Source: a virus. Taken from it: a stretch of 64,000 nucleotides of DNA. Both the position numbers and the translations under genes were made by a program. Below the pieces are notes generated by a model that was not told the origin of the DNA, did not search any database, and saw only the letters and a program-made list of their open reading frames with translations. The stretch is from positions 1-64,000 of the IMG/VR virus record IMGVR_UViG_3300049719_000225. One strand, written 5' to 3'. Shown in pieces: positions 33,001 through 49,727 of this stretch (position 1 is its first letter; each line of letters opens with the position of its first letter).

Positions 33001-34238
33001 CAATTACGGGTTCCTATGGGAAAGTGGTTTTGGGGAGCAGGCGGGTATTAGACCTTTTTGAACAACTTGGGGCAGTTGAACGCACTGAGAACAAACTGAG
33101 TAAAACACTCAAAATACCTGTTTGGCTGCTCAACGCCCCAAAGCACCTCAAATTGTCTTTTTTTGCGGGCCTGATAGATACGGACGGCTGCGTTAAGACT
33201 TCAGATGCTTCAATATCATTCTGCACAAAGTCTTGGAGATTGGCTCAGGATGTGATCGTTATGCTTAGATCAGTGGGCATTGAATCAACTCTGTACCCGT
33301 CCTGGAACTCTACTTACGAGAAGTATTACTTTGTAGTGAATGTGCCTGTAAGCTACGCTTGCCAGCTTCGAGGTTATTTACGTCACCCGGATAAAGCGTC
33401 GAAGCTGAGGGAACCAAAATGCACTTCAGGTCGAGTCAAAACAGAAAATTTAGTAACAGCCACCCTGGAAATTCCAGACGGAGAGGTAGTTGACATATCG
33501 CTAGACGACCCACATCTATATGTTCCAGAAGGACTTACCACCCACCAGACCACGAACTTCCTCACGGGATACGGTGGCGGGGCGTTCGGTCTGCAGACAA
33601 CGTTGGCCGAGGAACAGGTGTATCTCGACCAGGAGGAGTGTGAAAACATCATCGATGCGATGTTCGACACCTACCCCGTGTTGAGGAAGTACATCGGTAT
33701 CTACAAGCAGTTCATCCTGGAGCACGGGTGCGCTGTGAGTATCTTCGGACGTGTGCGTCCGTTGCCAGAGGTGGAATCCGAGGACCAGCAACTTGTGAAT
33801 AAGGCCCTGCGTGCGGGGTTCAACCACCTCATTCAGTCCACGGCCTCGGACATGATGTTACTAGCCATGGACGTGATCGACAGGACGCTTTTCGATGAGG
33901 GTCTCGAAAGCTGCCTCGTCAGCACCGTCCACGACAGCTTGGTCATCGACGCTCGCATCAGCGAACTGCCCAAGGTCCATGACATTGTGGACTGCGTGAT
34001 CAACAACCTCCCCGACATTCTGGACTCCCTGTTAGGCCCGGATTACAACAGCGACTGGTGCCGCGTGCTGCCCCTGACAGGTGACTGCGAGGTGGGACGC
34101 AACTACCACGACCAGTCGAAGATGGACAGCTTCAAGGACTCTTCGGGGGTTGTGGACTGGGAGAAGGCGCGCGAGTTCCTGCACGCCACTCCTGCTGCAT
34201 CCGACCAGTCCACTCCAGACGCCGATCTATCTCACTAG
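30009..34238 (+). CDS. polA: Family A DNA polymerase with N-terminal uracil-DNA-glycosylase-like domain and 3'-5' exonuclease, intein-containing
   Basis: CLKCGLC...RC...VLAIGSTA (UDG family 4-like); YDSET, GHNLTFD; TRSGRLGCSRPNLAQ; DLSQIELR; RSIAK|TTNF..GYG; VHDS. Confidence 0.93.
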   Translation: MAKKSKQPPKLWRDVAAHKEAHQGKFVPDEDNPYCLKCGLCALGSKRFLGPQGSDDPWVTVVVDGVGWREDDAGEVAVEDSANGTVRKNLEEMAESINFPLDRIRWLPMTRCANRSKTQVDYKVKGNWCRAFAVDDLTQHPPRLVLAIGSTALGLLSHKSNAFDWAGKVLTWRGWPDDWLTSAQYDEGHPALPRPPVTEIPLYATQSSRIIFALQNSRETARWKGQLKEALEYAAEGAEIPDYDRPYFSFLEDPDAVIEALKAIPDDALVTYDSETKGLLQWAQNAAIVAMMFRYDGPDGPVCFGFPWDFEESALKSHLPRIIPVLLDTFYRVRLQGHNLTFDILYAYATLPGADLRRLTDAMGFDTRHLIYTLHQTKESLGLELVAYRWCPEMSGYEEEFTLIKDHTGLSDYLDPGMEAGGHYSRALLLGDDVRKAYITYIMGDVEVCHVSGDAIREKLDNARIYPFPIADPNRLGEFRMFSPPPRRFVYDKIMLPSNRMLTRLMGRGMHVDVAELAHQENIFPKMIKAARAQLRKMDDRVAQWCEEQEATVVLKNGQPWILDLESREQLKHILFNVMALPVKRLTKTGLKKYKDTELADMTVEERLEYAAVDKYTINALAAEHKGLVAPLQEYRKLYKAYTAFVRSMRNITTEGVDKHDRKQPPYLQSDGRVHASFNLCGTRSGRLGCSRPNLAQLPSSQKVIVKRIYNSRYGDEGCIYQGDLSQIELRLLAAASGDPLMVDAYRRNIDLHSLTASHIFEIPYEHLHKDYFAWLQKNGREKEAKELERKRSIAKCVDPLTLVSVDGKIIRIGSIHPGRDIDKYYPITGKVVQVGPHGGSGEIRHFYSGGVKKKVLICARKGLLACTPNHKFLLHDGTQVEAADLKKGMQLADVVPLNHACDEGKTISLPINIFGKGMNNENLNYSCRVDGDMSYLLGVLYGDGNVNENYSAISTGGDERFFKWQDIIAECATKLGIDAKIIRTEFSGTKVSEKLGPITGSYGKVVLGSRRVLDLFEQLGAVERTENKLSKTLKIPVWLLNAPKHLKLSFFAGLIDTDGCVKTSDASISFCTKSWRLAQDVIVMLRSVGIESTLYPSWNSTYEKYYFVVNVPVSYACQLRGYLRHPDKASKLREPKCTSGRVKTENLVTATLEIPDGEVVDISLDDPHLYVPEGLTTHQTTNFLTGYGGGAFGLQTTLAEEQVYLDQEECENIIDAMFDTYPVLRKYIGIYKQFILEHGCAVSIFGRVRPLPEVESEDQQLVNKALRAGFNHLIQSTASDMMLLAMDVIDRTLFDEGLESCLVSTVHDSLVIDARISELPKVHDIVDCVINNLPDILDSLLGPDYNSDWCRVLPLTGDCEVGRNYHDQSKMDSFKDSSGVVDWEKAREFLHATPAASDQSTPDADLSH
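32397..33548 (+). mobile_element. LAGLIDADG intein in PolA motif B, C-terminal Gln (384 aa)
   Basis: CVDPLTLV...CTPNHKF...LLGVLYGDG...FFAGLIDTDG...GLTTHQ|T; AT-rich relative to flanks. Confidence 0.93.
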
Positions 34239-34755: not shown

Positions 34756-35487
34756 GTGACACTCGAAGAAGTTCAAGCCAAACGCAAACTTAGACACCTA
34801 GAGAATAGGGAACACAACCTTGCAGTGATGCGAGCCTATGGGAAAAGAAACAGGTCGGCTCTAACCAAAAAATCACGCGAAAGGTATAAAACTGATCCAT
34901 TGTTTAGGGCAGATATAAGGCGACGTTCCAAGAAATGGCTAGCTAAACCTGAGAGCAGAGAAAAACGTTTGGCATCTAGCAGACGGCAAACTGCCAAGAT
35001 AAAGAGCGATCCTATTAAATACCGTGAGGCTCTTGATAGGCATCTGGTTTACATGAAAGAACATGTAAGGACGCCTGAGTACAAAGAGAAGAGGAGAGCC
35101 TGGTACCAGAGGTACCATAAAAATCCCAAAAATGCGATGGTACGCAGACTAAGGTCCAGAGTAAGATTCGCTCTAAAAGCGCGTGGATTCAGTTATTCAG
35201 CGGTGACACTTCTCGGGTGTACAAAAGATGAATTTTTACGCTACATTGAATCCTTATTTGTATCTGGCATGACTTGGGAAAATAGGTGGGCTTGGCATCT
35301 CGATCATAGGAAGCCCATCGCCTCATTTGATTTCAACGATCCTGAGCAGGTGCGGGCCTGTTTTCACTGGTCAAATTATCAGCCCCTCTGGGCTCACGAT
35401 AACATCGTCAAGGGGTGTTCGGTGGTCCCAGATACTTCTTCACCGAGTCTGGCAGAGACACCCACTCCTCCATTGTCCAGTTTCTAA
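34756..35487 (+). CDS. HNH homing endonuclease
   Basis: LLGCT...GMTWEN...WHLDHRKP.ASFD...CFHWSNYQPLWAHDN; own late motif 3 nt upstream. Confidence 0.85.
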   Translation: MTLEEVQAKRKLRHLENREHNLAVMRAYGKRNRSALTKKSRERYKTDPLFRADIRRRSKKWLAKPESREKRLASSRRQTAKIKSDPIKYREALDRHLVYMKEHVRTPEYKEKRRAWYQRYHKNPKNAMVRRLRSRVRFALKARGFSYSAVTLLGCTKDEFLRYIESLFVSGMTWENRWAWHLDHRKPIASFDFNDPEQVRACFHWSNYQPLWAHDNIVKGCSVVPDTSSPSLAETPTPPLSSF

Positions 35488-37882
35488 TCAATGGCCATAC
35501 GTTAGGCCCTTGAACGTACATGTGTGCGTTACGGTAACCCGGAACCAATTTTCCTTTCATAAGAACCCCGTCCACCCACTCCTGCATCCTGTAATTTTTA
35601 TCATCGGCGTGGCCACTGCCGAGATGCTTGCCTGCAATCTCGTCCAGCGTCTTTCTAGTGGCGCTAAAGTGGTAGATGTCATACCCGAATAGCTCGTGGC
35701 GATAACCGTAGGTTCCTCGGCAGTGCTCGAAGGTGGCATCCGTGCGGGCATAGATGGTGGCCTTGTCGAGAGCGCCCTCTATCGGATAGCCAGGCAAGCC
35801 CGCCACGGGCACCATGCCTGTGAAGACGCTCATGGGCCAGCGCTCCCGCACCATCTCGTTCATTCGGGCCAGCATCCCAGGACGCCATAGTTCATCGCCG
35901 TCCATGATGATGGTGTGTTGGAACCCCCGTGCTCCGCAGAAGCGTTGGTACCAGTTGCGGCAGTCGGTCTCTACCTTGATGCGCTCCTGTCTCACGTTCG
36001 CCACCTTCGCCACCTCGAAAGGAATGAACTCGACACCGTATGGGTGGGGGTAGTCCGGGTGGTTCTCCCTCAGCCACTTATTCAACCAGATGTTCAACCG
36101 ATCTGCAATCTTGGAAACCTCTTGGCGTTCATCCTCGTTAGCAGGAGCACCATCCCATCGCATGCTCGGGGCGAACAGGAACACGTTTTCGATTCGGTCC
36201 TGAAGCTCAGTGGTTTTGGAGAGCTTGATGCCCTCTTCAAGGATCCGCTGGCACACCTCGAACAAACACAGGTCGTCTCGGATGGCTTGCACGACTACCG
36301 CATATCGCACGGGCACCGCAGCGTACTCGGCAGACCTAGGTCCGTCATCCAGCGGAAAGCCCAGGTTCTTGCGGAAATTGAACAGTGTCTCGCCGAAGTT
36401 CCAGCGCTCCATGCTGGCGTGTTTCAAGTCCACCTCATCGCGAGGCCTCTTGCCACAGTCTGGGTGCATGTGCTCGAAGAGGAGGTGGCGGGCATCCACA
36501 ATGACGCGATCCTGCGAGGCCACGTAAGTGAACTCGGTGTCACTGTTGTGACTCAAGTAACCGTCTGCCACGTAATTCTTGGTTTCTGTAGAGAGGCAAT
36601 AAACGTCGGTTGTATTGTCGTCGTCGTTGAGCCCCCAGTAAGTGGGCTCGATAGAAACAATCTCATCAGGCGAACCGTAGCGTGAGGTGAACATCCTCTT
36701 GGACACCTGTTTTTTGAAAGTACGTACAGGTCGAGTCCACGCTAAAAACTTTAGGTATTCTTCACGGCCACCCGTGAGCGTGAAAACCTGTTGAGTGACG
36801 GGGGCACCCCGGTATTTTCCGTATGAACGGTCTGTAGAGAATTGGAAACCCAGACGACGAAGAACGCGACCAATCTCGGCGCACACTTCTGGGTTCTTAT
36901 CCAGCGACTGGGAGATGCACGGGAAGCTGCCCTCGCCATCATACATTCCAGCTAACCAACCCAAATCTCGTACGGACTCTGGATCGGTAGGGGCAGGCGG
37001 GGGAGTTTCCAGCACCCTAAGAAGTTTGCGCCCTATTTTAGGCTCTCCCCACCTAATCTGTCCAAACCCCCTTTGCCTAGCGTACCCAGCCGTTGTACGC
37101 AGAATTTTTCCCTTCTCATTTCTCAGATATTGACGGGTATCGCCGTAGTAGGCCCACACATGGTCGGGGGTGCATAGGAGAGTTTTTCCCGATTTCAGAG
37201 TGAGTTTTACAACTCGATCTCGTTTCTTGTGCACCTCAAGAACCTTTGATGGCTGCAAGAAATCACGAGGCTGCACCCCTCGACCAGGCCGTCTTGATGA
37301 TCCGACAACCATATCACCTGGTACGATGTCCCTAATGGCTTTGAACGTCTGGTTCGCCATGTAAATGGGAGTATCAGGCGGAAGGCAGAAGAGACTCTGG
37401 TATCCTGGGTAGAAGACGTAGCCGAACCGCTCGTAGCGTCTGCGGGTAAGGATGGCCAAGGTCAGCAGGTCGGGGTTGTAGCCATCCTTCACCCACATCA
37501 CGATCTCGTTCTTCCACCAACCCCAGGGGATGGTTTCGATGATGCCCTTATCCCAATGGACGGGTACGTCAAAGTCATCGGCCACGCAGATGATGATGTC
37601 ACCCGCGGCGCGACTGGCAGCCGTGTTCCAGCCTGAGACGCAATTCTTGGGGCCGGTGTTGGGAACGCCGCGGATACTGCGGTGCTTCAGGGAGGCATCG
37701 GCCACTAGCTGGATGATGTTGTTGCACACCGCTGTGTCACCTTCATCGTAGCAGATGATGAACTCGACGTTCGACGGATCGTTGGCTCGTTCAAGCCAAC
37801 GTCGCACTGTCAATTCCACCGCTCCTGGTCGTACTGTTGTATAACAGAGGGAGAATATGGGAGCGGGTGCGGGTGTACTCAC
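35408..37882 (-). CDS. Two-domain GT-A (GT2-like) glycosyltransferase, intein-containing
   Basis: GWNTAASRAAGDIIICVADDF; second domain IIMDGDELW. Confidence 0.8.
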   Translation of the reverse strand: MSTPAPAPIFSLCYTTVRPGAVELTVRRWLERANDPSNVEFIICYDEGDTAVCNNIIQLVADASLKHRSIRGVPNTGPKNCVSGWNTAASRAAGDIIICVADDFDVPVHWDKGIIETIPWGWWKNEIVMWVKDGYNPDLLTLAILTRRRYERFGYVFYPGYQSLFCLPPDTPIYMANQTFKAIRDIVPGDMVVGSSRRPGRGVQPRDFLQPSKVLEVHKKRDRVVKLTLKSGKTLLCTPDHVWAYYGDTRQYLRNEKGKILRTTAGYARQRGFGQIRWGEPKIGRKLLRVLETPPPAPTDPESVRDLGWLAGMYDGEGSFPCISQSLDKNPEVCAEIGRVLRRLGFQFSTDRSYGKYRGAPVTQQVFTLTGGREEYLKFLAWTRPVRTFKKQVSKRMFTSRYGSPDEIVSIEPTYWGLNDDDNTTDVYCLSTETKNYVADGYLSHNSDTEFTYVASQDRVIVDARHLLFEHMHPDCGKRPRDEVDLKHASMERWNFGETLFNFRKNLGFPLDDGPRSAEYAAVPVRYAVVVQAIRDDLCLFEVCQRILEEGIKLSKTTELQDRIENVFLFAPSMRWDGAPANEDERQEVSKIADRLNIWLNKWLRENHPDYPHPYGVEFIPFEVAKVANVRQERIKVETDCRNWYQRFCGARGFQHTIIMDGDELWRPGMLARMNEMVRERWPMSVFTGMVPVAGLPGYPIEGALDKATIYARTDATFEHCRGTYGYRHELFGYDIYHFSATRKTLDEIAGKHLGSGHADDKNYRMQEWVDGVLMKGKLVPGYRNAHMYVQGPNVWPLIRNWTMEEWVSLPDSVKKYLGPPNTP
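36545..37387 (-). mobile_element. LAGLIDADG intein in glycosyltransferase (281 aa)
   Basis: SLF|CLPPDTPI...CTPDHVW...WLAGMYDGEG...YVADGYLSHN|SDTEF. Confidence 0.92.
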
Positions 37883-38162
37883 GAGGGTATAGAATCGTCC
37901 TCCTTAACTGCGCTCACCAAGCCCAACTCTATGAGTGCTGGAGCGAAGGCCTCCGCGATCATGTTGCGGATGGAAACACGGGCGGCTTCGTTCAGGTTCA
38001 GTTTCAAAGCAACGTTATCGCTGGCGACGGTAAGAGCGTCATTAAGTTTTCCAACGGCCAGTTTTCTTTCATTTTCTGGTATTTTCTCCATCTGAGAATG
38101 TCTCCTAAGTGGTTGATTGACAATTTTTAATGGTTCATAGAGAACCAAAAGTTGTTTTAGTG

Positions 38163-38190
38163 TTTACAAAATCATCACCCGCCCTATTAT
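38163..38190 (+). promoter_or_regulatory. Early sigma70-like promoter TTTACA-N16-TATTAT
   Basis: Context TTTTAGTGTTTACAAA is repeated at 42575-42590. Confidence 0.65.
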
Positions 38191-38232
38191 CAGTGGTAAG
38201 AGATCAACCCCAACACAACCACCACAAATACT

Positions 38233-38916
38233 ATGGGCCTCAAACCACTAAAGCTAGAAGTCGCCGCCGCTCCCTCTGCTAAGAAGAGCGACGTTCCCGC
38301 CCGCACCCTTGCGGGCGTTGCCATTGCCGAGTTCATTCGCCTGAAGGCCGAGGTCGAGGACCGCGCGGCCCGCATGAAGACCCTTGAAGAGGAGATCAAG
38401 CTGGCGGGCTGCACTGAGGTGATCAGCATCAACTGTGAGAACGCCACGAATCCCGTGTCCTCAGTCAGGCTGCAGGACGACGAGGGTGCCAAGGCCACCG
38501 TCTCCTTCACCTCCAAGTACAGCGACATCGACGCCGATGCGTTCAGCGCCGTCTTCGCCGAGATCAACGCCCGCAGGAAGGCCGCTCGCCTGCCTGCCGT
38601 CAGCGAGGCTGAGTACGCTCAGTTCGTCATCGCTGCCAAGCTGAACGATGTCGCCTTCTACGACAAGGACGGCAACTTTCAGGAGGCCGTCTACGCTGAG
38701 GTCCGCAAGGCCCTCGATGCCGTAGCCGCCAAGCTGGTGGCCGCAGGCAAGGTCGCCGCTGGCACCCCGCTCTACACCGAGGCTCAGAAGGCCCGTGTCA
38801 AGCCGACCTTCCACGCCAAGCGGTGGGAGTTGGGCGTCGAGGACAACACCTCCCTGCTCGGCACCGTCCGCAACACCGTCACGCTCAAGCCCGTTGCTGG
38901 CACCGTCGCCGCCTGA
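38233..38916 (+). CDS. Early hypothetical protein
   Basis: 227 aa, strong C-ending codon bias. Confidence 0.75.
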   Translation: MGLKPLKLEVAAAPSAKKSDVPARTLAGVAIAEFIRLKAEVEDRAARMKTLEEEIKLAGCTEVISINCENATNPVSSVRLQDDEGAKATVSFTSKYSDIDADAFSAVFAEINARRKAARLPAVSEAEYAQFVIAAKLNDVAFYDKDGNFQEAVYAEVRKALDAVAAKLVAAGKVAAGTPLYTEAQKARVKPTFHAKRWELGVEDNTSLLGTVRNTVTLKPVAGTVAA

Positions 38917-38920
38917 TCCC

Positions 38921-39220
38921 GTGAACGTCGCCTCTCAAACCCTCTACTACCTCCCCCTGACGGGGGCCGATCTCACCTACCTGCTGGATACCTTGCAGGG
39001 CCGTGCCTCCCTCCCGCTGCCCAATGAGCGCGACCTGGCCCGTTCCCTTCGCAGCATCGAGCAGGTGCTGCCCGAGTCCCAAGTCGAGCAGGTTCAAGAG
39101 ACCGTGAAGGCAGGGTTTGAGCAGGCCCGTTCGCAGGCAGCGGATCTCAAGGACCACGCCGTGGCCCTTTGCAAACTCATCAACGAAGCACAGAAACGCC
39201 CGTCAGAATTTTCACTCTAA
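38921..39220 (+). CDS. Early hypothetical helical protein
   Basis: GTG 38921 fills the gap between neighbours. Confidence 0.55.
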   Translation: MNVASQTLYYLPLTGADLTYLLDTLQGRASLPLPNERDLARSLRSIEQVLPESQVEQVQETVKAGFEQARSQAADLKDHAVALCKLINEAQKRPSEFSL

Positions 39221-39224
39221 TCCA

Positions 39225-40349
39225 ATGACCGCATCCCCCCAAGGAGTCGAAGTCCTCCGCAACGCCACCCTGTTCAGCTTGACCCGCTCCTCGTGGAGCA
39301 ACTACCGCAAGGCCGACCGCAGCAAGGTCAGCATTCAGGGTTACTCCACCGATCTGGATGGTGCCACCACCTCCGTCAGTGACGCCGCCACCAAGCGGGT
39401 GAACGTCACCAAGAAGCTGGTCGAGTCCGAGCAGTTGGACAACGTCCGCAAGTACATGAACGAGGTGTACGACTGGTGCCTCAAGCACTGCATGCCGTCC
39501 ACGGCCATCCGCAAGGGCATCTACTTCGTGAAGAACAACCAGGTGCCCGTCTTCGAGGAGAAGCTGACGCACGCTCTCGATGAACTGCGCAGCACGATCC
39601 TGCCCTCCTTCCTTGAGCCCAACCCCAATGCGGTCCTTGAGGACGGCTCGCCCGATGTGGCCCGCCGGACTTTCTCTCCGTACGAGCTGGCCAAGGAAGC
39701 GGCCAAGAAGCCCACGGTCGAGGGTGGCCTGGGCGAACTGTACGACGAGGACGACTACCCCACCGTGGAAGAGCTTCGGAAGGCTTTCAACCTGCGTTGG
39801 TCGTGGCTCCAGTTGAGCGTGCCCGACGAGTTGCCCGAGGAGGTTCGGGTGCGTGAGGTCAGCAAGCTCAAGGCCAGCTTCCTTGAGGCTCAGGAGGAGA
39901 TCAAACTGGCTCTCCGTGCGGGCTTCAAGGACCTTGTTTCACACGCCATCGAGCGCCTGACCCCCGGTCCTGACGGGAAGCGTAAGGTGTTCTGCGAGAG
40001 CACCTTCACCAAGTTCAACGAGTTCTTCGAGACCTTCAACGCTCGTAACCTCATGGAGGACGCTGAGTTAGAGGCCGTCGTGGAACAGGCAAAGGAGATC
40101 ATGAAGGGCCTCCCGAGCGTGGATGACCTCCGCAGCGCCGAGAGCCGTCGCCTCGCCTCACTCATCAAGCAGAACGAGAAGAAGGGTAACATGGTCAAGG
40201 TGGCTGAGTTACAGAAGCAGCTTGTCGAGCAGGAGAAGGCCGACGCTCAGGTTCTTGAGTCCACGGTGGCCCAGTTCGCCAAGGTGGACGAAGTGCTCGC
40301 CCCGCTCGTTCTCACCCCCACCCGCCGCTTCAACTTCGAGGAGGAGTAA
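39225..40349 (+). CDS. DUF3150-like helical protein
   Basis: TKKLV, KGIYFV, YDEDDYPTVEELRKAF...W; ends RRFNFEEE. Confidence 0.6.
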   Translation: MTASPQGVEVLRNATLFSLTRSSWSNYRKADRSKVSIQGYSTDLDGATTSVSDAATKRVNVTKKLVESEQLDNVRKYMNEVYDWCLKHCMPSTAIRKGIYFVKNNQVPVFEEKLTHALDELRSTILPSFLEPNPNAVLEDGSPDVARRTFSPYELAKEAAKKPTVEGGLGELYDEDDYPTVEELRKAFNLRWSWLQLSVPDELPEEVRVREVSKLKASFLEAQEEIKLALRAGFKDLVSHAIERLTPGPDGKRKVFCESTFTKFNEFFETFNARNLMEDAELEAVVEQAKEIMKGLPSVDDLRSAESRRLASLIKQNEKKGNMVKVAELQKQLVEQEKADAQVLESTVAQFAKVDEVLAPLVLTPTRRFNFEEE

Positions 40350-40366
40350 AAAACAGCACTTTGTGC

Positions 40367-40394
40367 TCGACATTCACGCTCCAAAACACATAAT
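40367..40394 (+). promoter_or_regulatory. Sigma70-like promoter TCGACA-N16-CATAAT
   Basis: 8 nt upstream of the AAA ATG, in an AT-rich gap. Confidence 0.5.
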
Positions 40395-40402
40395 AGACTT
40401 CA

Positions 40403-42058
40403 ATGAAAGCCCCCACCGCAAAGAAACACCCGATCATCGCCGTCAGGCGCGCAGGCGTTCCGCTCATCGCATTCGAGACGAGCGATCCCGCTCAGACCAT
40501 CGTGCAGGTCAACAAGGCCCTCAATGGTAGCTCCTCCAACGTTCCGCTCCTGCGGTGGGACATCGTGAGGGGACTCGTTGGCCTGAACCCTCTCGGTCAG
40601 CAGCGTGTCCAGTCCATCCTCAGCAAGTGGCTCAAACAGGAGGGGGCCGGTGAATCCAAGGAGGAGCAGGCCGAGCGCCAGGCGGCCACCTGTGACCCGT
40701 CCTTCACGCTGAACCTCCTGCGCAAGGTGGCCGAGGACTTCACGCCCGCCAAGCCGAGCCTCATCGACAGCGGCCTCATCTTCTTCATGAACGCCCACCT
40801 GTTCTTCAAGTCTGAGGTGGTGCTGCAGGCCATGTGGAACCTCCGTGACGCCCTGAAGCCCACGGCTGCCACGCTGGTCGTCCTCTGCCCCGCCATGAAG
40901 CTGCCCGAGGAACTGACGCACGATGTCGTGGTCATCACTGAGCCGCTGCCGAACGCCGAGGAAGTCGGCGTCATCGTGGACAGCATCGCCAAGGACGCCA
41001 AGTGCGACATCGATCCCGCCGACAAGCCGAAGGTGATCGACACCGTTCTTGGCGTCAGCGCCTTCGCCGCCGAGCAGGCCCTTGCTATGAGCATCGGCCC
41101 TGTGGACGGCAAGGTGGTCCTAGACCGTGACGAACTGTGGGAGCGCAAGCGCAAGATGGTCGAGAACACCGAGGGCCTGACGATCCACCGTGGCAAGGAG
41201 TCCTTCAACGACGTGGGCGGGCTCTCCAACGTGAAGGCCTTCCTCACGAAAATCCTCCAGAGCGGCAACAACCCCGTCCGCTGCATCGGCTTCATCGATG
41301 AGATCGAGAAGATGTTCAGCGCTGCCTCCACGGGCGGCGACATGAGCGGCGTGTCGCAGGACCAGCTCAAGGTGCTTCTCACCGAGATGCAGGACAACGA
41401 CATCCCCGGCATCATCTTCGTTGGGCCTCCTGGCACGGGCAAGAGCGCCGTCGCCAAGGGCGCGGGTTCGCTCGCCGAGGCCGAGGTGATCAGCATCGAC
41501 ACGGGTGCCATGACGGGCAGCCTCGTTGGCCAGTCGCAGGCCAAGATCAGGAGCGCCTTCGCCACGTTCAAGGCGGTGTCGCAGGGCAAGGGCCTGTTCA
41601 TCGCCACCTGCAACAAAATCGCTGCCCTGCCGCCCGAACTGCGCAGGCGCTTCACGCTCGGCACGTTCTACATCGACCTGCCGAACGCCGAGGAGCGTGC
41701 CGCCATCTGGCCGCTCTGGCTCAAGAAGTACGCCGCCATGGAGGGCAGCAAGCTGACGCTCAAGAGCGAGCAGCCCGACGACGAGGGTTGGACGGGTGCC
41801 GAGATCAAGGCCTGCTGCGATGTCGCCTATCGGGCGAACATCTCCCTCAAGGAGGCTGCGTCCTACATCGTCCCCGTCAGCAAGTCGTCCGCTGACCAGA
41901 TCAAGGCCCTGCGCCAGATGGCCTCTGGAAAGTTCATCTCGGCCAGCAAGGCGGGCATCTACCAGTACGTTGAGAACGAGGCCGACGCTGCGGCTGCGGC
42001 CTCCCTTGACGGCACGAAGCGCCAGACCCGCAGGTTCGGCAGCGAGGAGAAGGCTTAA
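40403..42058 (+). CDS. Ycf46-like AAA+ ATPase with internally permuted ATPase domain
   Basis: FNDVGGL, FIDEIEK (41291) before GPPGTGKS (41423), FIATCN, LPPELRRRF, IDLPNAEER, GWTGAEI. Confidence 0.9.
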   Translation: MKAPTAKKHPIIAVRRAGVPLIAFETSDPAQTIVQVNKALNGSSSNVPLLRWDIVRGLVGLNPLGQQRVQSILSKWLKQEGAGESKEEQAERQAATCDPSFTLNLLRKVAEDFTPAKPSLIDSGLIFFMNAHLFFKSEVVLQAMWNLRDALKPTAATLVVLCPAMKLPEELTHDVVVITEPLPNAEEVGVIVDSIAKDAKCDIDPADKPKVIDTVLGVSAFAAEQALAMSIGPVDGKVVLDRDELWERKRKMVENTEGLTIHRGKESFNDVGGLSNVKAFLTKILQSGNNPVRCIGFIDEIEKMFSAASTGGDMSGVSQDQLKVLLTEMQDNDIPGIIFVGPPGTGKSAVAKGAGSLAEAEVISIDTGAMTGSLVGQSQAKIRSAFATFKAVSQGKGLFIATCNKIAALPPELRRRFTLGTFYIDLPNAEERAAIWPLWLKKYAAMEGSKLTLKSEQPDDEGWTGAEIKACCDVAYRANISLKEAASYIVPVSKSSADQIKALRQMASGKFISASKAGIYQYVENEADAAAAASLDGTKRQTRRFGSEEKA

Positions 42059-42059
42059 C

Positions 42060-42563
42060 ATGAGCCACGTCGAAACCTGCAAAGTGGCCTTCAAGGACCT
42101 TGCGGCGGTGAAAGCCGCCTGCAAGGCCCTGGGGGTCACCTTCGTGGAGGGCAAGACCCACTTCAACTGGTACGGCCAGCATGTCGGCGACTACCCGATC
42201 ACGAAGGAAATGTCTGACGCTGGCATCACGAAGGAAAACATCGGCCAGTGCGCCCACGTCATCCAAGTCCCAGGCACCACCTGGGAGGTTGGCCTGTGGC
42301 CCATGAAGAACCAGCCCGGCTCCTTCCTGCCCGTCTACGACTTCTACGGCGGGCAGGGCGCTGTGCTCCAGAAGGCCCTTTGCAAGGGTCCTGGCTGGCC
42401 CCAGACGCCGAAGAACTACAGCGGGTACAGCGTTGGGCTGGAGAAGCTGGCTGACCACTACTCCCTCGAAGTGCTCAAGGCCAAGGCCCGTGCGAAGGGC
42501 TACCAGTTCAAGGAAACGCAGGTTAATGGCAAGATAAAGCTGGTCGTTTCCCTCGGAAACTGA
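42060..42563 (+). CDS. DUF1257 (Ycf35-like) protein, copy 1
   Basis: MSHV...FKDLAAVKAACKALG, WEVGL, YSLEVLKAKARAKGY. Confidence 0.75.
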   Translation: MSHVETCKVAFKDLAAVKAACKALGVTFVEGKTHFNWYGQHVGDYPITKEMSDAGITKENIGQCAHVIQVPGTTWEVGLWPMKNQPGSFLPVYDFYGGQGAVLQKALCKGPGWPQTPKNYSGYSVGLEKLADHYSLEVLKAKARAKGYQFKETQVNGKIKLVVSLGN

Positions 42564-42582
42564 AAAAACCCTGTTTTTAGTG

Positions 42583-42610
42583 TTTACAAAGTGCCCCCAA
42601 CCCTTAGTAT
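42583..42610 (+). promoter_or_regulatory. Early promoter TTTACA-N16-TAGTAT, leaderless geometry
   Basis: ATG 6 nt downstream; same upstream context as 38163. Confidence 0.65.
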
Positions 42611-42616
42611 GAAATC

Positions 42617-43078
42617 ATGAGCCATATTGAAAAATGCTCGGTGGTCATCACCGACCTAAAAGCGCTGAAGGCGGCGTGCGAGACCCTCGGTCTCACACTG
42701 TCAGAGGGACAGAAAAAGTTCGTTGGCTACTACGGTGCCAAGAACCCATGCCAGCACGCCATCAAGGTGCCTGGCGTGTCGTGGGAGGTTGGCCTGCTCT
42801 CGGCTGACACGGAGGGCAACAAGGTGAAGGGCTGGACAACGGCCTTCGATCCGTTTGGCACGCAGGGCCAGACCATCGCCTCCAAGCTGTGCAAGAAGCA
42901 CGGCGAGCAGTACGGCCAGCCCGTGTACAAGCACAAGGACGGCACGCACCACTGCGAGACGCTGATGAACCAGTACTCGCTGGAGGTTCTGAAGGCGAAG
43001 GCCCGTGCGAAGGGCTACCAGTTCAAGCAGACCACCGTGGACGGCAAGATCAAGCTGCAGGTGACCCTCGGCAACTAA
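42617..43078 (+). CDS. DUF1257 protein, copy 2
   Basis: MSHI...ITDLKALKAACETLG, WEVGL, identical YSLEVLKAKARAKGYQFK. Confidence 0.75.
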   Translation: MSHIEKCSVVITDLKALKAACETLGLTLSEGQKKFVGYYGAKNPCQHAIKVPGVSWEVGLLSADTEGNKVKGWTTAFDPFGTQGQTIASKLCKKHGEQYGQPVYKHKDGTHHCETLMNQYSLEVLKAKARAKGYQFKQTTVDGKIKLQVTLGN

Positions 43079-43106
43079 CCCCCAACCTCTCAAATCCAAA
43101 AAACAC

Positions 43107-43319
43107 ATGACAACCTTCGGCACACCCAAAAAGACCATCACCTTCACCATCGAAGACGGGGAGGTCACCTCTGAGGCCCACGGCTTCACGGGCAAGGCCT
43201 GCGAGGCCGCGACCAAGTTCTTCACCGATGCTCTCGGCGGCAAGACCACCAAGAAGACGTTCAAGCCCGAGTACTACAAGACCGAGAAGTCCTTCGCTTC
43301 TCAGACGGCGGGGAACTGA
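43107..43319 (+). CDS. DUF2997 protein
   Basis: ITFTIEDGEVTSEAHGFTGKACEAAT...ALG...KPEYY. Confidence 0.8.
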   Translation: MTTFGTPKKTITFTIEDGEVTSEAHGFTGKACEAATKFFTDALGGKTTKKTFKPEYYKTEKSFASQTAGN

Positions 43320-43322
43320 ACC

Positions 43323-43589
43323 ATGAGCCGCATCGCCGTATTCTCCATCGAAGACGGGGAGGTCACCGCACTGGCTGGTGGCCCCCTGTCACTGGCCGAC
43401 ATGGGCCAACGCTCCACCGAGCGGGCTTCCCACCTTGAGTTCAATGCCGACCTTGGCGTTGGAGGCGAGTGGGAGGTCACCGACCACAAGACGGGAGTCC
43501 TCCTGTTCACCCACGCCGACTACGACGTGGCCCTGCAGTGGGAGGCCGACCACTACAACCAGTTGCTTCTGGAAGGAGGTGCGTCATGA
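43323..43589 (+). CDS. Small acidic protein of the AAA module
   Basis: FSIEDGEVT, ERASHLEF, ALQWE. Confidence 0.65.
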   Translation: MSRIAVFSIEDGEVTALAGGPLSLADMGQRSTERASHLEFNADLGVGGEWEVTDHKTGVLLFTHADYDVALQWEADHYNQLLLEGGAS

Positions 43590-43939
43590 GTCTCGCTGGC
43601 CACCTTTCCTCCGACGAACTGGTCATCAAGCCCGGCGGCGTCTATCAGGGCAAGACGATTGCCTGGACGTGGCCGTTCAATTCGCAGACCAACCCCGACA
43701 GGAGCTACAGGTGCCTCCTCTTCGAGGACGGTTCCCTGACGTGCAACTGCCCAGGCTGGGCCAAGCGGGTGGTGAACGGCGTGCGTGAGTGCAAGCACAC
43801 GCAGTTCGTCGCCTCGTCGCTTGAGATGGTCCAGAACGGAGGCGCATTCGTTGAGAGCATGGCCCCCGCTCAGAAGGCGATGTTTGTAACCGCCAAGGAC
43901 AACTGGAGCCGCAGCCGTCGCAGGTTCAACTTCGACTAG
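43586..43939 (+). CDS. SWIM zinc-finger protein
   Basis: LTCNCPGW...RECKHT; ends RRRFNFD. Confidence 0.75.
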   Translation: MSLAGHLSSDELVIKPGGVYQGKTIAWTWPFNSQTNPDRSYRCLLFEDGSLTCNCPGWAKRVVNGVRECKHTQFVASSLEMVQNGGAFVESMAPAQKAMFVTAKDNWSRSRRRFNFD

Positions 43940-44021
43940 ACTTTGGGATGGTATGGTGCGCAGGGAGATCCTGCGACAGGGGGTTTGGACCAGTGTTTTC
44001 CCCCACATGAAATCCCTCCCG

Positions 44022-44057
44022 AGCGCCCCGCCGATAATCGGCGGGGCGCTTTCTTTT
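44022..44057 (+). terminator. Rho-independent terminator closing the early operon
   Basis: AGCGCCCCGCCGA-TAA-TCGGCGGGGCGCT then TTCTTTT. Confidence 0.85.
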
Positions 44058-48481: not shown

Positions 48482-48620
48482 AACATAAGTACGGTCGAGG
48501 CCCTCCTGCGAAATTCTTCCATTTTTTGGTTTACAGAAGTTATCATCGTGTTCTCTTCAACGTTCAGAGAATCTGCCGGGGAGAGGCAGTGGTACGTTGC
48601 CCGGCCGCAGTGTCACCCCC

Positions 48621-49727
48621 ATGTCCATCTTCATTCCGCCTGCTCGTATTCGTCACGAAGACGAACTCTTCATCAACTCGCTCGCGCTCCAGTATCGCGA
48701 CTCCTTCTGGGATCACGAGACGCTTCGCAGCATCTCCGCCGACGCCCTCCGCATGATTCGGCACCTCGCTTCGAGGTACTCCGACCCTACCTGCATGGAG
48801 CTGAACGCCGAGGAGCTGGAGGCCGAGGGCAGGCGGAAATTCATCGAGCAGGTCACCGTCGTAAAAGTATTGACGGGTCTGCCCCAACGGTTACACATTG
48901 GTGATCTCGTGGTCTCCTTCAACGGTGCTCCCGTGTCGGATACGTCACAGTTGGCTAGAGAGATAGGCAGGTGCGCACCGAGGTCCGAGGCCGTAATCGA
49001 GTATTTGCGTTGGCCCAAAACCAGAAAAAACGAGGAAGAGGACAAGGAAGACAACAAGCCGAAAATGATGAAGGCTGGGGCCATAAAGTTCACGCTGGGC
49101 GACGAGGATGGGAAAGCTACCGTCTCCGGTGTCACGTTCAAGGAGATGGATGATGACACACGCTGGACAGGCCTGTCCGTCGAGAATTTCAACCCCTATG
49201 CCGCCGTTGTGGACGATGTGGATTCAGACGATTCACTGGTTTGTGGACGTGCTCCGAGGCCGCCCACGAGGGTCGAACTCTTCAGCTGGTTGAAGTGTTG
49301 CGCCAACAACCACATTCGGGGCATCGTCCATCGTTGTCGGTTCACTGTGAGGCGCACGGGACGCCGGGTGCCGTCCAAGGACAGCAATGTGGACTGGAAC
49401 AGATCGTTCAAGCCTGAGGTGAGTCTGGAGGCGGCCTCGGAGGACGAGTTCATGAACAGGGCCGTGGAACGGGCGGCCAGCGTGTGGGACTCCCATGCGG
49501 TGCAGGAGTTCGATGAGGATATGGGGGCGTCGAGGTACGCCTACCGCAGTTTCTCCCATCCTTCCAATTCCAATCTTACTATCAAACTCATCAGTTTACA
49601 TCTGCGTCTTCTACCAAATGATCTCGTCTCTATCGACAACTGCGCCTACCTCAACCTCCTCGCCGACCATTACCGTGAAAACGGATGCTCGGTCAGGTAC
49701 ACTTACACGCCACAGGCATCCGCATAG
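48621..49727 (+). CDS. Sigma-factor-like protein, N-terminal part (region 2 with inserted PDZ domain)
   Basis: RMIRHLASRY...AEELEAEGRRKFIE, [GDLVVSFNGAPVSDTSQL], LFSWLKCCANNHIRG, EVSLE. Confidence 0.6.
   Translation: MSIFIPPARIRHEDELFINSLALQYRDSFWDHETLRSISADALRMIRHLASRYSDPTCMELNAEELEAEGRRKFIEQVTVVKVLTGLPQRLHIGDLVVSFNGAPVSDTSQLAREIGRCAPRSEAVIEYLRWPKTRKNEEEDKEDNKPKMMKAGAIKFTLGDEDGKATVSGVTFKEMDDDTRWTGLSVENFNPYAAVVDDVDSDDSLVCGRAPRPPTRVELFSWLKCCANNHIRGIVHRCRFTVRRTGRRVPSKDSNVDWNRSFKPEVSLEAASEDEFMNRAVERAASVWDSHAVQEFDEDMGASRYAYRSFSHPSNSNLTIKLISLHLRLLPNDLVSIDNCAYLNLLADHYRENGCSVRYTYTPQASA

Follow-up and report, generated by a model that had tools for sequence, protein, structure and literature searches.

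A conserved AAA+, DUF3150, DUF1257 and DUF2997 gene module in an uncultured soil phage and other mobile DNA

Near in fold to the ATPase reported here are Cdc48, p97 and VAT, with which it shares two stacked AAA-type domains, classical-clade motifs that include the sensor 1 Asn and a double Arg finger, a disordered C-terminal tail, and small dedicated partners. Another close set is that of cyanobacteria and plastids, made up of Ycf46 (AAA), Ycf35 (DUF1257) and DUF2997. Ycf46 is described as an orphan stress-induced AAA ATPase (PMC7496141), and genes for DUF2997 and Ycf35 proteins adjoin in cyanobacteria (PMC4284462), although in Synechocystis the reported companion of this pair is the ferredoxin Fed7 instead of Ycf46. 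Reports on the cyanobacterial and plastid Ycf46 set, which we compare with our locus by description, mention neither a DUF3150 nor a SWIM partner. On mobile DNA, a classical-clade AAA ATPase also occurs together with an S8 protease in IetAS and SgiAT (PMC10954446).

Here, we compare these systems with an operon of an uncultured soil phage, contained in a window of 64,000 nucleotides (positions 1 to 64,000 of IMG/VR record IMGVR_UViG_3300049719_000225). Our analysis supports the view that genes three to nine of the operon (g3 to g9) are components of a real and conserved module. As a sequence-only reading had proposed, the module is apparently undescribed, as no published account of it or of its role was found in the literature searched.

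Layout and expression signals of the operon

The nine co-oriented genes anticipated from the sequence are compactly packed on the plus strand between 38233 and 43939, with gaps from g1 to g9 of 4, 4, 53, 1, 53, 28, 3 and -4 nt. PolA and DnaB genes lie 4-11 kb upstream in the window, and a terminator hairpin separates the operon from a convergent 870-aa gene. The features are as follows.

38155..38190, plus strand: promoter-like site P1, TTTACA-16-TATTAT, including the 16-mer TTTTAGTGTTTACAAA; 10/12 matches in the consensus scan
38233..38916, plus strand: g1, 227 aa, lineage-specific protein outside the conserved module, absent from 163 related loci
38921..39220, plus strand: g2, 99 aa, GTG start, lineage-specific protein outside the conserved module, absent from related loci
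39225..40349, plus strand: g3, 374 aa, divergent DUF3150 protein with an N-terminal alpha/beta domain, a C-terminal helical bundle and the tail ...TRRFNFEEE
40367..40394, plus strand: promoter-like site P2, TCGACA-16-CATAAT; 10/12 consensus matches; 9 nt 5' of the g4 ATG
40403..42058, plus strand: g4, 551 aa, AAA+ ATPase; PF00004 E 9e-17; AF2 pLDDT 88
42060..42563, plus strand: g5, 167 aa, pI 9.1, DUF1257/Ycf35-like paralog A by homolog alignment; N-terminal MSH
42575..42610, plus strand: promoter-like site P3, TTTACA-16-TAGTAT, with the 16-mer of P1 at 42575; 6 nt 5' of the g6 ATG
42617..43078, plus strand: g6, 153 aa, DUF1257/Ycf35-like paralog B by homolog alignment; PF06868 at 15.9 bits, under the 22.2 cut-off
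43107..43319, plus strand: g7, 70 aa, DUF2997 protein; PF11211 E 3.8e-12, 46.3 bits against a cut-off of 24.1; phrog_23133
43323..43589, plus strand: g8, 88 aa, pI 4.3, unnamed acidic family, accessory module partner by profile matches in related loci
43586..43939, plus strand: g9, 117 aa, SWIM-type zinc-finger protein with invariant C-x-C...C-x-H residues and the tail ...RRRFNFD
44021..44051, plus strand: intrinsic terminator hairpin, 14-bp stem with 11 GC pairs, then a U-run; -30.6 kcal/mol, z -5.9

Both the strong terminator and the three sigma70-like promoters of the sequence-only reading are borne out. The promoter-like sites occupy plus-strand intergenic gaps 5' of g1 (38163-38190), g4 (40367-40394) and g6 (42583-42610), and in the consensus scan the region yielded 4 sites, compared with 1.1 +/- 1.1 in shuffles. 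P1 and P3 have the exact 16-mer in common, and no third copy exists in the window (0.12 expected).

Codon use was examined as the proportion of third positions occupied by C (C3), which is 0.41-0.56 across the operon genes and 0.29-0.40 in the majority of the remaining window genes; GC3 is 0.74 for g2 and 0.85-0.89 for the other eight. The strong C-ending bias claimed for the operon is therefore present but not unique to it, as the major capsid gene (C3 0.46) and the ORF at 7551-9710 (0.49) are likewise biased, and more weakly the ORF at 10088-11959 (0.43) and the head protease (0.42). Because the capsid gene and other window genes have the same bias, it looks, on codon use, like a high-expression type and not the signature of a foreign island. 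A match to the capsid gene would also suit a chaperone of virion assembly, and AAA+ assembly chaperones do occur in phages (PMC7824862). However, the same module is found on plasmids and non-phage integrated elements, and in none of the surveyed loci does it adjoin head or tail genes, making this role so improbable as to be almost negligible.

The first two genes stand apart. For g1, no match was found in Pfam, PHROG or NCBIfam, and only 3 relatives were recovered among 5.8 billion proteins. For g2, five matches at E <= 0.001 were found among 1.84 billion representatives, and its GTG start is supported because three of the five, 92-98 aa long, align from residues 4-6. Neither gene is present in any of the 163 related loci surveyed. 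Consequently, the earlier view of the nine-gene operon as one module stands for g3 to g9 but not for g1 and g2.

Architecture of the ATPase

The structure model predicts that g4 is a classical AAA+ ATPase built in two tiers, as in p97/Cdc48. It aligns with p97/Cdc48 D1-D2 over 405 residues (Z 19.1), spanning residues 6-521, and its D2-like half aligns with p97 D2 alone at Z 17.4, rmsd 2.5 A and 24% identity. This model match bears out a protein-remodelling ATPase, in line with the remodelling role proposed from the sequence. The N-terminal half (about residues 6-250) is a nucleotide-dead D1-like scaffold, in which the P-loop is missing and ETSDPAQT stands in its place. In the active D2-like half, Walker B (D299 E300) comes first, followed by Walker A (K347 S348), sensor 1 (N404) and the Arg fingers (R415 R416), and all seven residues are invariant across 29 homologs. 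The sequence thus reads as a C-terminal half with all catalytic residues kept and the Walker-B strand and helix 3 relocated ahead of Walker A. Pore loop 1 is L-V-G, resembling p97 D1, as opposed to aromatic-hydrophobic-Gly, and therefore processive threading is not assured. The protein ends in a disordered tail, ...TRRFGSEEKA.

Local alignments (z 6.6-20) give the block order a0, Walker B-a3, Walker A-a2, b4 in the window ATPase and in Tunturi_3, and the classic order a0, Walker A-a2, Walker B-a3, b4 in ATPases of Manganitrophus, Arthrobacter and Microcystis plasmids and of phage JP1. The swapped order occurs in 132 of 138 surveyed ATPases and the classic order in none, counts that represent non-independent events, as the surveyed loci share ancestry and were fetched by patterns specific to the window's ATPase subfamily. 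UniProt gives the name 'AAA domain-containing protein ycf46' to a cluster mate of the Manganitrophus ATPase, and on alignment evidence g4 is most simply read as a segment-swapped derivative of this classic-order, Ycf46-named ATPase from the same kind of module. The label "Ycf46-type" given earlier to g4, with its Walker B before Walker A, consequently fits only loosely, through the plasmid relative.

Unlike Cdc48, p97 and VAT, g4 has no N domain, a D1-like half without a P-loop, the Walker-B/helix-3 block ahead of Walker A, partners from DUF families that have no kinship with Ufd1-Npl4 or UBX proteins, and no linked ubiquitin-like system in its clade (49 related phage records). The last point bears on whether the motor handles proteins that a Ubl/E1/E2/JAB cascade of the phage has tagged. 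The p97-like fold might suggest this, as might a JAB gene located two genes ahead of the module on the Manganitrophus plasmid. However, ThiF/E1 and Prok-JAB were not found in the 98-kb contig, and ThiF exceeded the family cut-off in none of the 49 related phage records (22 of them at least 90% complete), leaving this reading very improbable. Obligatory coupling to such a cascade in the window's clade is contradicted by the same ThiF result.

A defence or superinfection-exclusion system resembling IetAS was also considered, given that g4 weakly matches IetA/IteA models, with E 4e-11 and 41 bits in PADLOC and, in NCBIfam, 39 bits where the cut-off is 510. Nevertheless, these scores, far under the family cut-offs, represent generic AAA similarity, the architecture differs, no further PADLOC match was found, and the module lacks an effector such as a protease, nuclease or TIR. 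Its neighbours are replication genes and not defence islands, and we regard such a function as distinctly improbable.

Partner proteins, distribution and neighbours of the module

The conserved components are the AAA+ ATPase (g4), the DUF3150-like protein (g3), the DUF1257 paralogs (g5 and g6), the DUF2997 protein (g7), g8 and the SWIM protein (g9). No direct Pfam match to DUF3150 was found for g3, but its AF2 model (pLDDT 88) has a DUF3150 protein as best BFVD fold match (E 9e-11, TMt 0.72), and the assignment is supported by tblastn, which matches g3 to a protein that PGAP names DUF3150 (E 1e-6), and by ESM-Atlas neighbours. The two DUF1257 paralogs are 50% identical; g5 has no direct PF06868 match in a Pfam search, and 13 of 16 aligned sequences (g5, g6 and 14 homologs) match that family. 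Both begin with MSH, as in cyanobacterial and plastid Ycf35 (PMC13060386). The doubling of DUF1257, taken earlier as a clue to stoichiometry, carries little weight, since only one other surveyed locus (L056) shows it. For g8 there is no Pfam match and its Atlas neighbours are unnamed, while its profile matches 26 of 52 viral loci, a Ca. Manganitrophus plasmid (E 4e-29) and Tunturi_3 gp99 (E 1e-25). For g9, 15 homologs show no variation at C53, C55, C69, H71 and the tail residue R112, and 4 of the 15 weakly match PF04434; the survey placed the SWIM gene at 21 of 52 viral loci and at none of 37 bacterial ones.

The gene-neighbourhood survey suggested in the sequence-only reading found conserved linkage elsewhere. 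Of the 91 related loci whose flanks are complete, 85 hold the AAA, DUF3150, DUF1257 and DUF2997 genes together and 90 have the DUF3150 gene, and DUF2997 is immediately 3' of DUF1257 in 80 of 85. All 414 module ORFs are co-stranded, with a median span of 4.3 kb and variable gene order. In the soil phage operon, the ATPase has four or five small partners dedicated to it. Thus, g4 is tied by gene linkage to a DUF3150 protein and an adjacent DUF1257-DUF2997 pair, and the acidic 88-aa protein and the SWIM protein are optional phage extras.

Carriers are exclusively mobile DNA, namely phages, plasmids and integrated elements. Ca. Manganitrophus plasmids (CP114559/54/62) hold the same families in one co-oriented cluster, and on one of these plasmids the set has a classic-order ATPase and includes DUF3150 and a g8-like protein. 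From Arthrobacter pZXY22 and Agrobacterium phage JP1, profiles recover only DUF1257-like and DUF2997 proteins as partners; on the Arthrobacter conjugative plasmid the ATPase is found with weakly matching DUF1257-like and DUF2997 genes, after which a 254-aa gene shows no match to the DUF3150 profile. Whereas the ATPase of these classic-order modules has the ordinary Walker A to Walker B order, the window clade is a swapped derivative with a SWIM partner and a second DUF1257 in addition.

The module always lies amid replication and recombination genes: DnaG primase, DnaB, SNF2 helicase and a sigma factor at phage loci, and SSB, Rad52, AEP primase and a methyltransferase-helicase at bacterial loci. 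Bacterial copies adjoin SSB, methyltransferase-SNF2 helicase and PRTRC_E, which we take to be typical of conjugative-element establishment regions. Together with the restriction to mobile DNA and, only suggestively, the sigma70-like sites and strong codon bias in the window, this could indicate an early-made unfoldase that helps the incoming element to establish by unfolding or taking apart immune or housekeeping proteins of the host. However, the module has no known anti-defence domain, and its partners are kept across widely differing hosts (Acidobacteriota, Nitrospirota, Actinomycetota, Alphaproteobacteria phage JP1), fitting a universal target better than a variable immune protein. We consider an anti-defence or host-takeover role unlikely.

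Alternatively, the ATPase and its small Cys/His partners could act as a chaperone for a metal or Fe-S cofactor, maturing it or placing it in an enzyme such as one of the radical-SAM type. DUF2997, Ycf35 and Fed7 are kept together in cyanobacteria (PMC4284462). A radical-SAM/Fer4_12 gene lies within the module at 48 loci, mainly bacterial, and an NrdG-like gene comes after it on the Arthrobacter plasmid. In addition, the viral DUF1257 subgroup conserves H3, C22 and C-x-H, one divergent DUF2997 group has His-rich C-terminal tails, and zinc is bound by SWIM. Against this, the module of the window and of most phage loci contains no radical-SAM gene, bacterial-type DUF1257 is without the Cys/His set, and we know of no p97-type ATPase that acts as a cofactor-insertion chaperone. 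This function therefore seems improbable.

The shared C-terminal tail and a possible mechanism

The DUF3150 and SWIM proteins, and in the window phage also the ATPase, terminate in a disordered common peptide, and the tails of g3 and g4 have low pLDDT in the AF2 models. The motif R-x-hydrophobic-x-hydrophobic-acidic is found in about 70% of distinct DUF3150 tails (82/115) and SWIM tails (13/19), against a background of 0.7% (100/13,751), and in none of 69 DUF1257 or 94 DUF2997 tails. Only 20% of the ATPase family fits it strictly (26/130 tails).

The ClpX adaptor SspB docks through its C-terminal peptide. As a working analogy, the module proteins may likewise be adaptors whose short C-terminal peptide docks on a non-catalytic unfoldase domain, although the proteins are unrelated, the motif is another, and tail binding to g4 is putative. 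With SspB on ClpX and cofactors on p97 as precedents, the shared tail would tether alternative adaptors, DUF3150 and SWIM, to one common receptor, for which our guess would be either the DUF1257-DUF2997 pair or else the ring of D1-like halves. The ATPase would assemble as a hexamer and use ATP to unfold or disassemble a protein or nucleoprotein complex relevant when a phage, plasmid or integrated element begins replication. Because the module always lies amid replication and recombination genes, DNA-bound proteins of the element or host are our favoured guess for the target; that position argues only weakly for such a target, since phages keep early and middle genes in replication neighbourhoods anyway. 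The best reading, which we hold tentatively and at a little under even confidence, is that the module is a protein-remodelling machine of mobile elements with peptide-tethered adaptors, encoded beside replication genes.

The phage and its nine-gene operon

The window covers the opening 64 kb of an IMG/VR virus contig of 98,115 bp that is 43% complete by CheckV, and the source virus is a tailed phage whose genes include those of the major capsid protein and a head protease. A DNA-level search against phage records returned no match to the window. The closest cultured relative of g4, the AAA+ ATPase of the operon under study, is gp103 of Tunturiibacter phage Tunturi_3 (36% identity, 93% of length). 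Because the overwhelming majority of bacterial contigs with g4 relatives are Acidobacteriota MAGs, the host is probably an acidobacterium. The family-A DNA polymerase and DnaB genes of the phage each contain an intein, and a Hint domain is also found in one homolog of the ATPase, P0149 (846 aa). Features of the window outside the operon's own genes, including an exact repeat that is present in two copies, are as follows:

26705-29182, minus strand, DnaB with Hint and Hom_end domains
30009-34238, plus strand, family-A DNA polymerase with LAGLIDADG
35408-37882, minus strand, glycosyltransferase gene with intein splicing domain
38155-38170 and 42575-42590, exact 16-mer TTTTAGTGTTTACAAA, overlapping the -35 elements of the first and third promoter-like sites
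48597-49727, plus strand, 376-aa protein with PDZ domain (E 5e-7)
51883-53787, plus strand, 634-aa protein with LAGLIDADG

The nine genes (g1 to g9) occupy 38233-43939 on the plus strand and are spaced by -4 to 53 nt, bearing out the co-orientation described in the sequence-only reading. The strong bias toward C-ending codons also holds, with C3 at 0.41-0.56 in the nine genes against 0.29-0.40 in most others; GC3 reaches 0.85-0.89 in every gene except g2, where it is 0.74. The bias does not, however, distinguish the operon from the rest of the window as had been claimed, as the capsid gene (C3 0.46) and the ORF at 7551-9710 (0.49) are likewise biased. Because these two genes share it, we read the bias of the operon as probable high-expression codon usage and not as the mark of a foreign island.

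A consensus scan placed the three anticipated sigma70-like sites on the plus strand in the intergenic gaps 5' of g1, g4 and g6, with 4 promoter-like sites in the region compared with 1.1 +/- 1.1 in shuffles. The 16-mer TTTTAGTGTTTACAAA has only two copies within the window; it may function as a phage-specific operator or promoter, or else be a relic of the duplication of DUF1257. A further copy with 2 mismatches is found outside the window, on the minus strand at 79883-79898 of the record that holds it (G000). At the second site 9 nt, and at the third 6 nt, separate the end of the -10 element from the start codon that follows; therefore, transcripts from these sites would be nearly leaderless if the sites are real. 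The operon is closed by a 14-bp GC-rich hairpin with a U-run (-30.6 kcal/mol, z -5.9), consistent with the strong terminator seen earlier, and no Rfam family matched between 37500 and 44500.

Identities of the small proteins

The operon had been described as a complete AAA/DUF module of nine genes. The core families were recovered, namely g3 (DUF3150-like), g4 (AAA+ ATPase), the DUF1257 paralogs g5 and g6, and g7 (DUF2997), but g1 and g2 are not parts of the module, as they are missing from every related locus. Both are genuine genes, although rare: among billions of proteins they have 3-5 relatives. Each of the nine products is soluble; g5, g6 and the SWIM zinc-finger protein g9 are basic, and g3 and g8 are acidic.

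The assignment of g7 comes from PF11211 (46.3 bits, cut-off 24.1). The paralogs g5 and g6 are 50% identical, and PF06868 (DUF1257) scores g6 at 15.9 bits against a cut-off of 22.2 and does not match g5, whereas 13 of the 16 sequences in an alignment of these two proteins with 14 homologs do match (best E 1.7e-12). Both begin with MSH, of which S2 is invariant in the alignment, and an N-terminal Met-Ser-His is a signature reported for Ycf35 (PMC13060386). In the same alignment, phage-type DUF1257 proteins keep H3, a C-x-H ahead of the VPG motif and a Cys at about residue 22, a set that bacterial-type proteins lack and that is possibly a subgroup-specific metal site. The '-GN' C-termini common to g5, g6 and g7 were rejected as a shared feature; they are not conserved, and relatives end in ...FAVR or ...QSQR. 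In a divergent DUF2997-like group (cluster 5) the C-terminal tails are rich in His, for example HSHDHVHGHHHH, with members among viral loci at L105 11508-11975 and L125 5981-6205, and these tails suggest metal binding.

We identify g3 as a distant DUF3150 protein on the basis of a tblastn match to a PGAP-named DUF3150 protein (E 1e-6), a best BFVD fold match that is also a DUF3150 protein (E 9e-11, TMt 0.72), and the Atlas clusters nearest to it, in which 13-18% of members carry PF11348. The Pfam DUF3150 model itself (PF11348) does not match g3 at E <= 0.1, and none of 32 homologs has a precomputed Pfam domain. The model of g3 (pLDDT 88) combines an alpha/beta domain at the N terminus with a helical bundle at the C terminus, and no informative PDB match was obtained for either: Foldseek found none in the PDB at E <= 0.001, and a wide VIA-align search with residues 200-366 gave generic helical bundles only (Z <= 10.4). 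Likewise, a PDB sequence search with the DUF3150-like, DUF1257 and SWIM profiles gave nothing below E 0.06. In g9 the SWIM signature of C53, C55, C69 and H71 is invariant in 15 homologs; PF04434 does not match g9 and matches four of the 15 weakly (E >= 0.003). The 88-aa g8 belongs to an unnamed acidic family of roughly 80-110 aa. That it might be a diverged DUF2997 was rejected, as the first hairpin alone aligns and the hhalign probability of 8% is not significant.

A p97-like ATPase with a swapped active domain

PF00004 identifies g4 as an AAA ATPase (62.1 bits, cut-off 21.2, E 9.3e-17), with the match split into two stretches. In its AF2 model (pLDDT 88), residues 6-521 align with the D1-D2 region of p97/Cdc48 (p97 210-764) at Z 19.1 over 405 residues, and the C-terminal half alone aligns with D2 at Z 17.4 (rmsd 2.5 A, 24% identity). 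Similar to Cdc48/p97, g4 therefore has a tandem D1-D2 AAA fold; unlike Cdc48/p97, it has no domain before residue 6 that could correspond to the N domain and no nucleotide-binding D1, and it scores 33.9 bits with the CDC48 model TIGR01243, for which the cut-off is 802. The N-terminal half is a dead D1-like scaffold, because it lacks a P-loop. In the C-terminal half, K347/S348 (Walker A), D299/E300 (Walker B), N404 (sensor 1) and the arginine fingers R415/R416 are invariant in 29 homologs, and because of this invariance the enzyme is probably active. Pore loop 1 is L-V-G, as in p97 D1, and not aromatic-hydrophobic-Gly.

The canonical AAA order is Walker A, helix 1, strand 2, helix 2, Walker B, helix 3 and sensor 1. 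In g4, however, the block containing Walker B and helix 3 (290-333) precedes that of Walker A (334-393). PDB AAA alignments cover Walker A to helix 2 at 335-389 and resume at the sensor-1 strand at 398, and there is therefore no room for a Walker B between helix 2 and sensor 1. Block-wise local alignments (z 6.6-20) give the order a0, Walker A block, Walker B block, b4 for the ATPases of Manganitrophus, Arthrobacter and Microcystis plasmids and phage JP1, which we call classic, whereas the two middle blocks are exchanged in g4 and the Tunturi_3 ATPase. Of 138 full-length ATPases surveyed, 132 are swapped and none is classic. We infer the position of the moved Walker-B strand in the sheet from the confident model. 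The P-loop varies within the swapped clade, for example GPPGAAKS in many acidobacterial copies and GVPGVSKS in Tunturi_3, with Ala or Ser replacing the usual Gly before Lys (L015, L046, L058, L002). At three loci (L087, L088, L164) two or three tandem ATPase ORFs lie ahead of the partners, which could be due to duplication, a frameshift or an intein-like split.

The ATPase had been called Ycf46-type. Pfam, NCBIfam and PHROGs contain no Ycf46 model, and g4 is 27% identical to the classic-order ATPase of the Manganitrophus plasmid module, which has a 346-aa cluster mate named ycf46 in UniProt. The name fits g4, which is segment-swapped, only loosely. Because the ycf46-named protein clusters with the Manganitrophus module ATPase, the g4 clade would thus appear, from these sequence relationships, to be a segment-swapped offshoot of a Ycf46-like ATPase already working with the same partners.

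An ATPase of this kind might also point to a defence system such as IetAS. PADLOC returned generic AAA matches only (IetA 41 bits), and the IetA NCBIfam model scores g4 at 39 bits, far below its cut-off of 510. There is no protease in the operon, so the module also differs from IetAS in lacking an S8 protease partner. A defence system is unlikely because no effector is present and the similarity to IetA is generic.

Linkage, shared tails and possible function

We surveyed 80 bacterial-genome and 80 viral loci encoding g4 relatives, plus three annotated records, and searched their six-frame ORFs for partners, using profiles built iteratively from each window protein. Conserved linkage elsewhere, as the sequence-only reading had anticipated, is evident: among the 91 loci whose flanks reach 5 kb or more on each side, all four core genes are present in 85, although the loci were retrieved with subfamily-specific patterns and include related sequences, so that counts are not independent events. 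A DUF3150-like gene is found in 90 of the 91, a DUF1257-like gene in 87 and a DUF2997-like gene in 86, the latter two counts taking in two divergent clusters that the profiles first missed. All 414 module ORFs are on the strand of the ATPase (median span 4.3 kb), and DUF2997 is immediately 3' of DUF1257 in 80 of 85 loci. The commonest order is A-1257-2997-3150 (A, ATPase), with 1257-2997-A-3150, A-3150-1257-2997 and 3150-A also seen, and this variation argues for selection on the linkage itself as opposed to descent of one arrangement. Among surveyed loci, g8 (26 of 52) and SWIM (21 of 52) occur as accessories, exclusively in viral loci, and a second DUF1257 occurs at one other locus only.

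Tunturi_3 has the full set (gp103 to gp96), the Ca. Manganitrophus plasmid CP114559 carries AAA, DUF1257, DUF2997, DUF3150 and a g8-like gene together, and the Arthrobacter conjugative plasmid pZXY22 and Agrobacterium phage JP1 have the ATPase, a DUF1257-like gene and DUF2997, with no match to the DUF3150 profile on either. Because plasmids carry the module, a role in virion assembly is unlikely. Tunturi_3 gp96 (L002 9666-10625, PP885686) is annotated as 'HNH endonuclease', which is probably wrong, since it has no HNH Pfam match and matches the DUF3150-like profile at E 3e-92. On CP114559 (L014) the classic-order module lies between JAB-domain and Fic genes with ParB and an HNH gene nearby, surroundings that are typical plasmid accessory.

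Recurrent neighbors in phage loci are DnaG primase, DnaB, SNF2 helicase and a sigma factor, with Sigma70_r2 genes near the module in 12 viral loci; in the window, PolA and DnaB are 4-11 kb from the module and a sigma-like gene is about 5 kb away. Bacterial loci have SSB, Rad52, AEP primase, HD protein, PRTRC_E and DUF6908, as well as a DUF6094 methyltransferase with SNF2/ResIII helicase, which places the bacterial copies within conjugative or integrated elements. For this clade, an obligatory link to a ubiquitin-like cascade of the Bil/Bub type is contradicted: the 98-kb contig has neither ThiF nor Prok-JAB, and a survey of 49 related phage records, of which 22 have a completeness of at least 90%, found ThiF above cut-off in none; the module of this phage thus differs from those systems in having no linked E1 (ThiF) or JAB. 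In 48 loci, mostly bacterial, a radical-SAM/Fer4_12 (NrdG- or QueE-like) gene lies between DUF2997 and DUF3150, and on pZXY22 one comes after the module; genes of this type are located, for example, at L039 10585-11535 and L176 6977-7399. This neighbor, a cyanobacterial ferredoxin link (PMC4284462), the His-rich DUF2997 tails and the Cys/His sets of phage-type DUF1257 hint at a metal or cofactor role for the module, which we nonetheless consider very improbable.

Several partners end in a similar peptide, R-x-hydrophobic-x-hydrophobic with an acidic residue within two, which we scored in the last 12 residues.

Tail motif in distinct C-terminal tails of each family (tails with motif/tails scored)
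DUF3150: 82/115
SWIM: 13/19
ATPase: 26/130
DUF1257: 0/69
DUF2997: 0/94
g8: 1/30
All other ORFs of the loci: 100/13,751

In the window the tails are TRRFNFEEE (g3), RRRFNFD (g9) and TRRFGSEEKA (g4), and the tail arginine is invariant across the SWIM family. Those of g3 and g4 are of low confidence in the models and presumably disordered. Presence of the tail in DUF3150 shows no association with its presence in the ATPase (Fisher p 0.85), but the regular expression miscalls variants, which makes this comparison uninformative.

The module is therefore built around a p97-like ATPase with a swapped active domain, and a tail motif is present in two or three of its partner families. We classify it as an AAA+ unfoldase with dedicated adaptors, of which the partners are wholly uncharacterised and the motor is rewired. 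The ATPase would form a hexamer, and interchangeable adaptors would dock through the tail peptide on either the D1-like ring or a hub made of DUF1257 and DUF2997; the machine would have a protein or nucleoprotein complex as its target, acted on while the element establishes itself or replicates. We hold this reading tentatively, with doubt slightly outweighing belief. A bolder version, in which the module is a self-contained segregase of mobile DNA in many phyla, the shared tail peptide plugs DUF3150 and SWIM into the DUF1257-DUF2997 hub, and the p97-like ring strips proteins off DNA at establishment or replication, is unlikely, and we would place anti-defence or host takeover as the purpose of the machine no higher.

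A full-text literature search found no paper describing the module or the block swap, in keeping with its earlier designation as the best candidate for an undescribed system, and Ycf35, Ycf46 and the slr0373-0376 operon are treated as of unknown function (PMC13060386, PMC7496141). The module is a machine of five to six genes that is widespread among phages, plasmids and integrated elements and has no described function; each partner family is one of the 'domains of unknown function'. The shared C-terminal peptide offers a direct and cheap handle on how the machine assembles, and the existence of the cultured relative Tunturi_3 (gp96-gp103) makes genetics possible. The swapped clade represents a rare non-circular rewiring of the ASCE core in which all catalytic residues are kept, and is relevant to protein-fold evolution; if the segregase reading were true, the clade would supply the first known case of a working AAA+ ATPase whose Walker-B strand is encoded before Walker A, and the same principle would account for ycf35 and ycf46, orphan genes in plastids and cyanobacteria. 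Ycf35/DUF1257 and the Ycf46-like ATPase are long-standing orphans of plastids and cyanobacteria, and solving the mobile-element module would probably explain both.
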